From: Escherichia coli
Lineage (GTDB): Bacteria; Pseudomonadota; Gammaproteobacteria; Enterobacterales; Enterobacteriaceae
Length of the DNA stretch: 328 bases
Assembly (NCBI RefSeq): GCF_003334385.1
Contig: NZ_QOWN01000202.1
Reading direction: 5' to 3' (one strand)
This document shows, piece after piece, positions 1 through 328 of the stretch. Position 1 is the first letter of the stretch. Each line of letters opens with the position of its first letter. Position numbers and translations under genes: made by a program. The notes below the pieces were generated by a model. It was not told the origin of the DNA, searched no databases, and was given only the letters and a program-made list of their open reading frames with translations.

Positions 1-230
1 TGCACACCGGATTCCATCCCGCCATCGCGGGAACGCCGGGAAAGGACCACCACATTGCGGCGCAGTTTTCCCCTGCGTACCGGTGCCCGTGACACCACTT
101 CTTCTTTCAGCACATTCGCACCCGCACGGGTTGCCTCACGCAGCACCCGGTTATTTTCCGCACCACTCAGAAGCTGCAAATCACGGCTTATTTCTTCAAG
201 TCCCGAAAAATCCAGCAGGGTTTCGATCAT
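1..230 (-). CDS. Phage neck/tail-component protein, HK97 gp10-like family (putative); N-terminal 76 codons, gene continues past window position 1
   Basis: Seen in sequence: minus-strand ATG at 230-228 with a GGAGG core 6 nt upstream; the frame is open for 76 codons to the window edge. Codon choice is enterobacterial-like (ctg, gaa, gcg, gtg, cgt, ccg, aaa dominate). Translation: MIETLLDFSGLEEISRDLQLLSGAENNRVLREATRAGANVLKEEVVSRAPVRRGKLRRNVVVLSRRSRDGGMESGV. Family call is from memory: the 'GL-EL' N-terminus followed by an 'APV-x-G-LRR-' motif resembles the HK97 gp10-like family (Pfam PF04883, as I recall). No search was run. Confidence 0.78.
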   Translation of the reverse strand, partial: MIETLLDFSGLEEISRDLQLLSGAENNRVLREATRAGANVLKEEVVSRAPVRRGKLRRNVVVLSRRSRDGGMESGV

Positions 231-328
231 TTTTCCCCTCCCAGCCGACAAAGAATTTCCAGGCGCCCGCCGGTCGCATCCGGCACGGGCACCCCGACAA
301 CATTCAGGATACAGTCACGCCAGGGACC
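227..328 (-). CDS. C-terminal 33 codons of an upstream phage morphogenesis gene (possibly a head-closure/head-tail adaptor protein); 5' end lies beyond window position 328
   Basis: Seen in sequence: minus-strand frame open from position 328 to the TGA at 229-227, translating GPWRDCILNVVGVPVPDATGGRLEILCRLGGEK*. The stop overlaps the downstream ATG (ATGA), a typical coupled-gene junction. Codon usage is reasonable (ctg, ccg, gcg, ggc, gaa). The product guess is inference from the usual gene order in siphophage neck modules, not from recognisable sequence similarity. Confidence 0.5.
   Translation of the reverse strand, partial: GPWRDCILNVVGVPVPDATGGRLEILCRLGGEK
235..242 (-). promoter_or_regulatory. 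Shine-Dalgarno / ribosome-binding site for the gp10-like gene
   Basis: Seen in sequence: minus strand reads GGGAGGGG (plus-strand cccctccc at 235-242). The GGAGG core at 241-237 sits 6 nt upstream of the ATG at 230-228. The site lies inside the last codons (G-G-E-K) of the upstream gene. Confidence 0.6.

Follow-up and report, generated by a model that had tools for sequence, protein, structure and literature searches.

Long-distance RNA interactions are known to control coupled translation in phage mRNAs, as exemplified by the Min Jou interaction in MS2, and, at the level of DNA, short sequences present in two copies serve either as paired operators that act with DNA looping (lac and gal) or as sites at which invertases carry out recombination (hix and gix). 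Translational coupling has a classic layout of its own, namely an ATGA stop/start overlap placed after GGAGGGG. The window considered here, a stretch of 328 nucleotides of Escherichia coli DNA in which all bases are coding on the minus strand, carries an exact 10-bp inverted repeat that resembles these systems in outline: like the Min Jou partners in MS2, its arms belong to adjacent cistrons, are complementary to each other and lie on either side of a translational start, and, like the lac/gal operators and the hix/gix sites, they are two inverted copies of a short sequence lying ~200 bp apart. Should such a pair be regarded as a control element of one of these kinds, or do we look at a functionless chance coincidence between two adjacent coding sequences? 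The evidence assembled below makes the latter very probable. The features concerned are:

Positions 1 to 230, minus strand: first 76 codons of the gene for an HK97-gp10-family head-tail joining protein (tail completion/Neck1 type), with its ATG at 230-228, running past the left end of the window
Positions 227 to 328, minus strand: last 33 codons and stop of the gene for a phage head closure protein (Hc1; SPP1 gp16/HK97 gp7 type), with its TGA at 229-227
Positions 227 to 241, minus strand: gene junction GGAGGGGAAAAATGA, comprising an SD-like GGAGGGG, a run of five A and the ATGA stop/start overlap; it lies between the arms and is part of neither
Positions 82 to 91: left arm GGTGCCCGTG, read on the minus strand as (T)CA CGG GCA CC(G), Ser-Arg-Ala-Pro, codons 47-50 of the HK97-gp10-family gene
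Positions 284 to 293: right arm CACGGGCACC, read on the minus strand as (GG)G GTG CCC GTG, Gly-Val-Pro-Val, towards the 3' end of the closure gene

The locus itself is readily placed. It corresponds to genes 7 and 10 of the HK97 head-tail joining module in the order of its genes, in the ATGA overlap and in the protein families, and the AAA TGA/ATG junction overlap is identical in HK97 and mEp234. By translation, the closure protein ends within the window in ...GPWRDCILNVVGVPVPDATGGRLEILCRLGGEK* (328-227) and the gp10-family protein begins with MIETLLDFSGLEEISRDLQLL... (230-1). Among 5,426 complete E. coli genomes, megablast found the window in 1,244, frequently more than once per genome, with roughly 2,900 copies in all, and always under the annotations ‘phage head closure protein’ and ‘HK97-gp10 family putative phage morphogenesis protein’. 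The best match (99.1%) belongs to E. coli S1-KEN-03-A, where the neighbours on the same strand encode terminase, capsid, portal, head-tail connector, closure, gp10, tail completion gp17, major tail and tape measure proteins. Stx-converting and other lambdoid phages carry the stretch at 94-96% identity; HK97, mEp234 and their relatives are ~68-71% identical to the window (HK97 ~68% over the part that aligns). Family models agree with the annotation: the full-length gp10-family protein of the 99.1% locus scores 82.5 bits with TIGR01725, above the curated cut-off of 30.8 bits, and the full-length relative also matches phrog_5 (‘tail completion or Neck1 protein’), while the 76-aa window fragment alone reaches 28.7 bits (E = 1.5e-6) against the same cut-off of 30.8. 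The full-length closure relative scores 23.7 bits with TIGR01563 (curated cut-off 20.6 bits) and matches phrog_25, ‘head closure Hc1’, at E = 4.3e-31; the 33-aa closure fragment from the window, taken alone, had no family-model match. The preliminary description was thus right, by RefSeq annotation and family models, in assigning a gp10-like gene and a gene upstream of it, and the host element is a lambdoid E. coli prophage, the window lying in its late structural operon.

Some observations concern the junction and the two genes rather than the repeat. There is a 12-nt direct repeat with one mismatch between 63-74 (CAGTTTTCCCCT) and 228-239 (CATTTTTCCCCT), so that gp10 codons 53-56 (RGKL), read on the coding strand, contain AGGGGAAAACTG, a near copy of the ribosome-binding region of gp10, AGGGGAAAAATG; positions 63 and 69, which fall within it, are variable among relatives, and this near-repeat of the ribosome-binding region is probably due to chance. 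The profile phrog_23409 (length 264) is matched by the closure protein on 1-98 and by the gp10-family protein on 117-264, as seen in the locus that holds the equivalent of the window with both genes in full (L001 3784-4577). Since 264 equals 116 plus 148 amino acids, it looks as if some deposited phage genomes carry both genes fused. Just such a fusion would result from one additional A in the A-run, or from a -1 slip of the ribosome on A AAA A ahead of the TGA; a fused closure-gp10 ORF arising at the junction A-run was nonetheless rejected, the extra A being found in 0 of 198 junction copies of the fetched loci. In one related viral contig (L086, IMGVR_UViG_2531839449_000039), small indels break the gp10-family reading frame, which points to decay of this prophage copy or else to errors in the draft assembly.

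The repeat is exactly as the preliminary description had it. Positions 82-91 and 284-293 are reverse complements in 10 out of 10 bases, with a spacer of 192 nt (described earlier as about 190 bp) and 202 bp from start to start; each arm is part of the minus-strand coding sequence of its own gene, and translation bears out the reported SRAP in the gp10-like gene and GVPV in the gene upstream. The 7-mer GCACGGG, also pointed out there for its recurrence at 124-130, is indeed present at that place and again at 283-289. No longer imperfect palindrome surrounds the 10-bp arms, as neither flank adds any match.

How surprising is an exact match of this length in a window of this size? The longest exact inverted repeat reached at least 10 bp in 2.9% of 5000 dinucleotide shuffles of the window and likewise in 2.9% of its mononucleotide shuffles. 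Retaining both proteins made little difference to the figure, which was 3.7% when synonymous codons were permuted within each gene and 2.7% when they were resampled according to the usage of the neighbouring structural genes; if 10-bp direct repeats are also counted as a finding, 12.8% of shuffles contain one or the other. At P = 0.027-0.037 per window under these four nulls, and with the scanning of many windows considered, the repeat is not significant. Real phage DNA contains such pairs more often still: in the closest relative, 27 exact inverted repeats of at least 10 bp and with a span of at most 328 were counted across the 50-kb prophage region, 10 of them inside the 19-kb structural module, and 8.5% of the 328-nt windows in this region (about 8% in the module) include at least one. 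With roughly one in twelve real prophage windows bearing a 10-bp inverted repeat, a scan of many windows will constantly meet them. The shuffling test proposed in the preliminary description, giving ~3% in composition- or codon-matched sequences, counts against a function. The further suggestion of a coincidence driven by GC-rich codon usage holds up only in its first half. Codon-preserving nulls add nothing beyond composition, their frequencies being equal to those of plain shuffles, so that GC-rich codon usage is no special driver and simple chance suffices; codon usage was rejected as an explanation on these grounds.

Two further groups of inverted repeats were noticed in the closest relative (L204). 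A second exact 10-bp pair, AAATCACGGC, occupies 23139-23148 and 23315-23324 with a spacer of 166; one of its arms falls in the equivalent of the window (178-187) and the other just past the right end, which illustrates how common such pairs are. Outside the window, four overlapping inverted repeats built on CAGTTAACATTTGC fill ~130 bp of intergenic DNA (30960-31090) just upstream of the terminase small subunit gene, and this cluster could be a candidate terminase-binding/cos region or an element of the late transcript.

Frequency alone speaks of windows in general, and the history of the two arms was followed in related viral contigs from IMG/VR. One sample comprised 80 loci retrieved via the gp10 protein, 78 of which were used for the arm comparison; a second, less biased sample comprised 120 loci retrieved via a 27-nt anchor (204-230) lying outside both arms, and 113 of these had a full window equivalent at 91-99% identity. 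In this second sample the left arm GGTGCCCGTG is identical in all 113 contigs. The right arm occurs as CACGGGCACC, complementary at 10/10 positions, in 13 of the 113; as CACGGGCAGC, complementary at 9/10 and encoding Leu for Val, in 87; and as AACCGGGACC, CACCGGCCCC or CACCGGGACG, complementary at 7-8/10, in the remaining 13. The first sample gave the same picture, with the 10/10 match in 13 of 78 loci. There, positions 284, 287, 290, 291 and 292, i.e. 5 of the 10, vary within the right arm, the larger sample adding 293, and all four third-codon positions of this arm are variable. Hence, in 100 of the 113 relatives, the right arm differs and the left is unchanged, with no compensating change in the latter. 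The comparison of homologs, which the preliminary description had put forward as a check, thus counts against a function as well, given that the right arm varies also at all its third-codon positions and that the exact match is confined to 13/113.

What distinguishes the minority that has the perfect match? The window's allele has GTG (Val) where the common allele has CTG (Leu), a non-synonymous change; because this one codon decides the match, the exact 10/10 complementarity rests on an amino acid difference in one closure allele. According to the haplotype table, the 10/10 carriers also agree with the window at several further variable columns of the closure 3' end, and every closure allele occurs together with the same left arm. 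As judged from these sequences, the 10/10 match fits inheritance of one allele, on which it would have hitch-hiked within a population of mosaic phages. It is conceivable in principle that the minority Val (GTG) allele might allow an allele-specific mRNA contact which, by bracketing the ATGA, would slightly tune the closure:gp10 ratio, but we see only a very slim chance of this. As a more general observation on the region, the closure 3' end exists as several distinct alleles, with linked differences at ~263-313, joined to almost identical gp10 5' sequences (L084-L203); variable columns number 25 of 98 in the closure part (231-328) as against 33 of 230 in the gp10 part (1-230), a pattern of ordinary mosaicism among phages, its boundary lying close to where the two genes meet.

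The behaviour of the left arm deserves a separate comment, as does the fact that an exact core of at least 8 bp (TGCCCGTG/CACGGGCA) is kept in 100 of the 113 relatives. Within the gp10 segment, 34 of 76 third positions (~45%, by a hand count of variable columns) are variable, and the left arm contains only three third-codon positions, for which the probability that all stay fixed is ~0.17. Unusual conservation of the left arm was accordingly considered and set aside as unremarkable. Both its invariance and the 8-bp core are accounted for by the fact that the sampled relatives diverge little (91-99% identity) and that the arm offers few synonymous sites; they are not by themselves decisive, and weak constraint is possible. 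At greater distance, HK97 and mEp234 keep the R-A-P and G-x-P-V residues with different synonymous codons (CGC/CGT, GCT, CCT/CCG, GTA), and the equivalents of the arms are complementary at 2/10 and 3/10 positions, respectively, which is the random level.

These results bear directly on a first functional reading, in which the closure-gene segment GGUGCCCGUG would pair, in the mRNA, with the gp10-family segment CACGGGCACC situated 192 nt downstream, looping out the ATGA junction and modulating the coupled translation of gp10. The arms do flank the gene junction together with its SD-like sequence, and a G+C-rich helix of 10 bp would be stable if formed. However, the lack of covariation, with 100 of 113 relatives changed in the right arm without a change in the left, largely refutes such pairing, and neither HK97 nor mEp234 possesses the complementarity. 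Folding predictions point the same way: on the mRNA-sense strand the predicted probabilities of arm-arm pairing are only 0.0000-0.0002, and the minimum free energy fold engages the 5' arm in local helices. The fold shows no extra stability relative to shuffled sequences (z = -1.15; 9 of 100 shuffles fold as well), and a search of both strands with the Rfam 15 covariance models at E <= 1 returned no match. Taken together, these observations leave the long-range mRNA contact with very little credibility.

Could the arms, then, act at the level of DNA? Two identical 10-mers in inverted orientation might in principle be sites for a candidate protein, be it a regulator, a recombinase or a packaging factor, which on binding both would loop the intervening DNA or recombine it. 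Yet both are embedded in coding sequence, midway along a late structural operon, where the promoter/terminator scan found no promoter-like site within the window, and 88% of relatives carry another sequence at the right site. Nor is the motif enriched in the 50-kb prophage, which has 7 matches to the 10-mer with at most one mismatch versus 4.7 +/- 2.0 expected; a count so near expectation argues that there is no dispersed binding motif. The same 50 kb contains 26 other inverted repeats of this kind, and, on general grounds, an inversion between the arms would be expected to destroy both genes. Paired protein-binding sites are for these reasons highly improbable. The same scan picked up a terminator-like stem-loop followed by a T-rich tract at 171-189 on the plus strand, i.e. 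antisense to the genes; with 0.3 +/- 0.6 such structures expected per shuffle, it is attributable to chance.

A third reading does without any protein and assumes that the arms form a single-strand DNA stem or a cruciform that affects replication, packaging or recombination. Apart from the exact 10-bp complementarity itself, it could draw on the predicted arm-arm pairing probability of ~0.06 obtained when the plus strand is treated as RNA. A spacer of 192 nt makes cruciform extrusion from duplex DNA very unfavourable, though, and the match is not conserved, and such pairs are common in prophage DNA. Of all the readings discussed here we hold this one to be the least probable.

A chance coincidence between two adjacent coding sequences accommodates all these findings in a simple manner. 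The head closure (Hc1) and HK97-gp10-family genes are adjacent and, by the layout of their junction, translationally coupled in the late operon, each arm would be present owing to the amino acids of its own gene (SRAP in one, GVPV in the other), and the exact 10/10 match appears only in the one closure allele that has Val GTG where most relatives have Leu CTG. We infer that the repeat is in itself functionless, whether as DNA or as RNA. The earlier reading of it as ‘most likely coincidence’ gains support from the shuffles, the relatives and the fold alike. Being without biological importance, the repeat has its use in calibration: in DNA of this type, roughly 3-9% of 328-nt windows contain an exact 10-bp inverted repeat whose arms lie hundreds of bases apart, and with such a background, scans should not flag these pairs unless conservation or covariation lends support.

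How does the locus finally compare with the systems mentioned at the outset? The HK97 module provides the context of the repeat and no explanation for it, as HK97 itself lacks the repeat. Compared with interactions of the Min Jou type, pairing is here not predicted, covariation is missing, and the complementarity is absent in homologs with the same junction. As opposed to the lac/gal operators and the hix/gix sites, the arms here sit within genes of a structural operon, one of the two copies is unconserved, the motif is unenriched and no promoter-like site is present; moreover, known recombination sites are longer than the 10-bp arms, and no recombinase or regulator gene occurs among the annotated neighbours within 4 kb on each side in the locus of the closest relative. 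The system that the repeat does resemble, in the same length, the wide spacing, the arms fixed by reading frame, a frequency like that in shuffles and in the real DNA nearby, and the unconserved match, is the background of short inverted repeats in coding DNA, from which no difference sets it apart.
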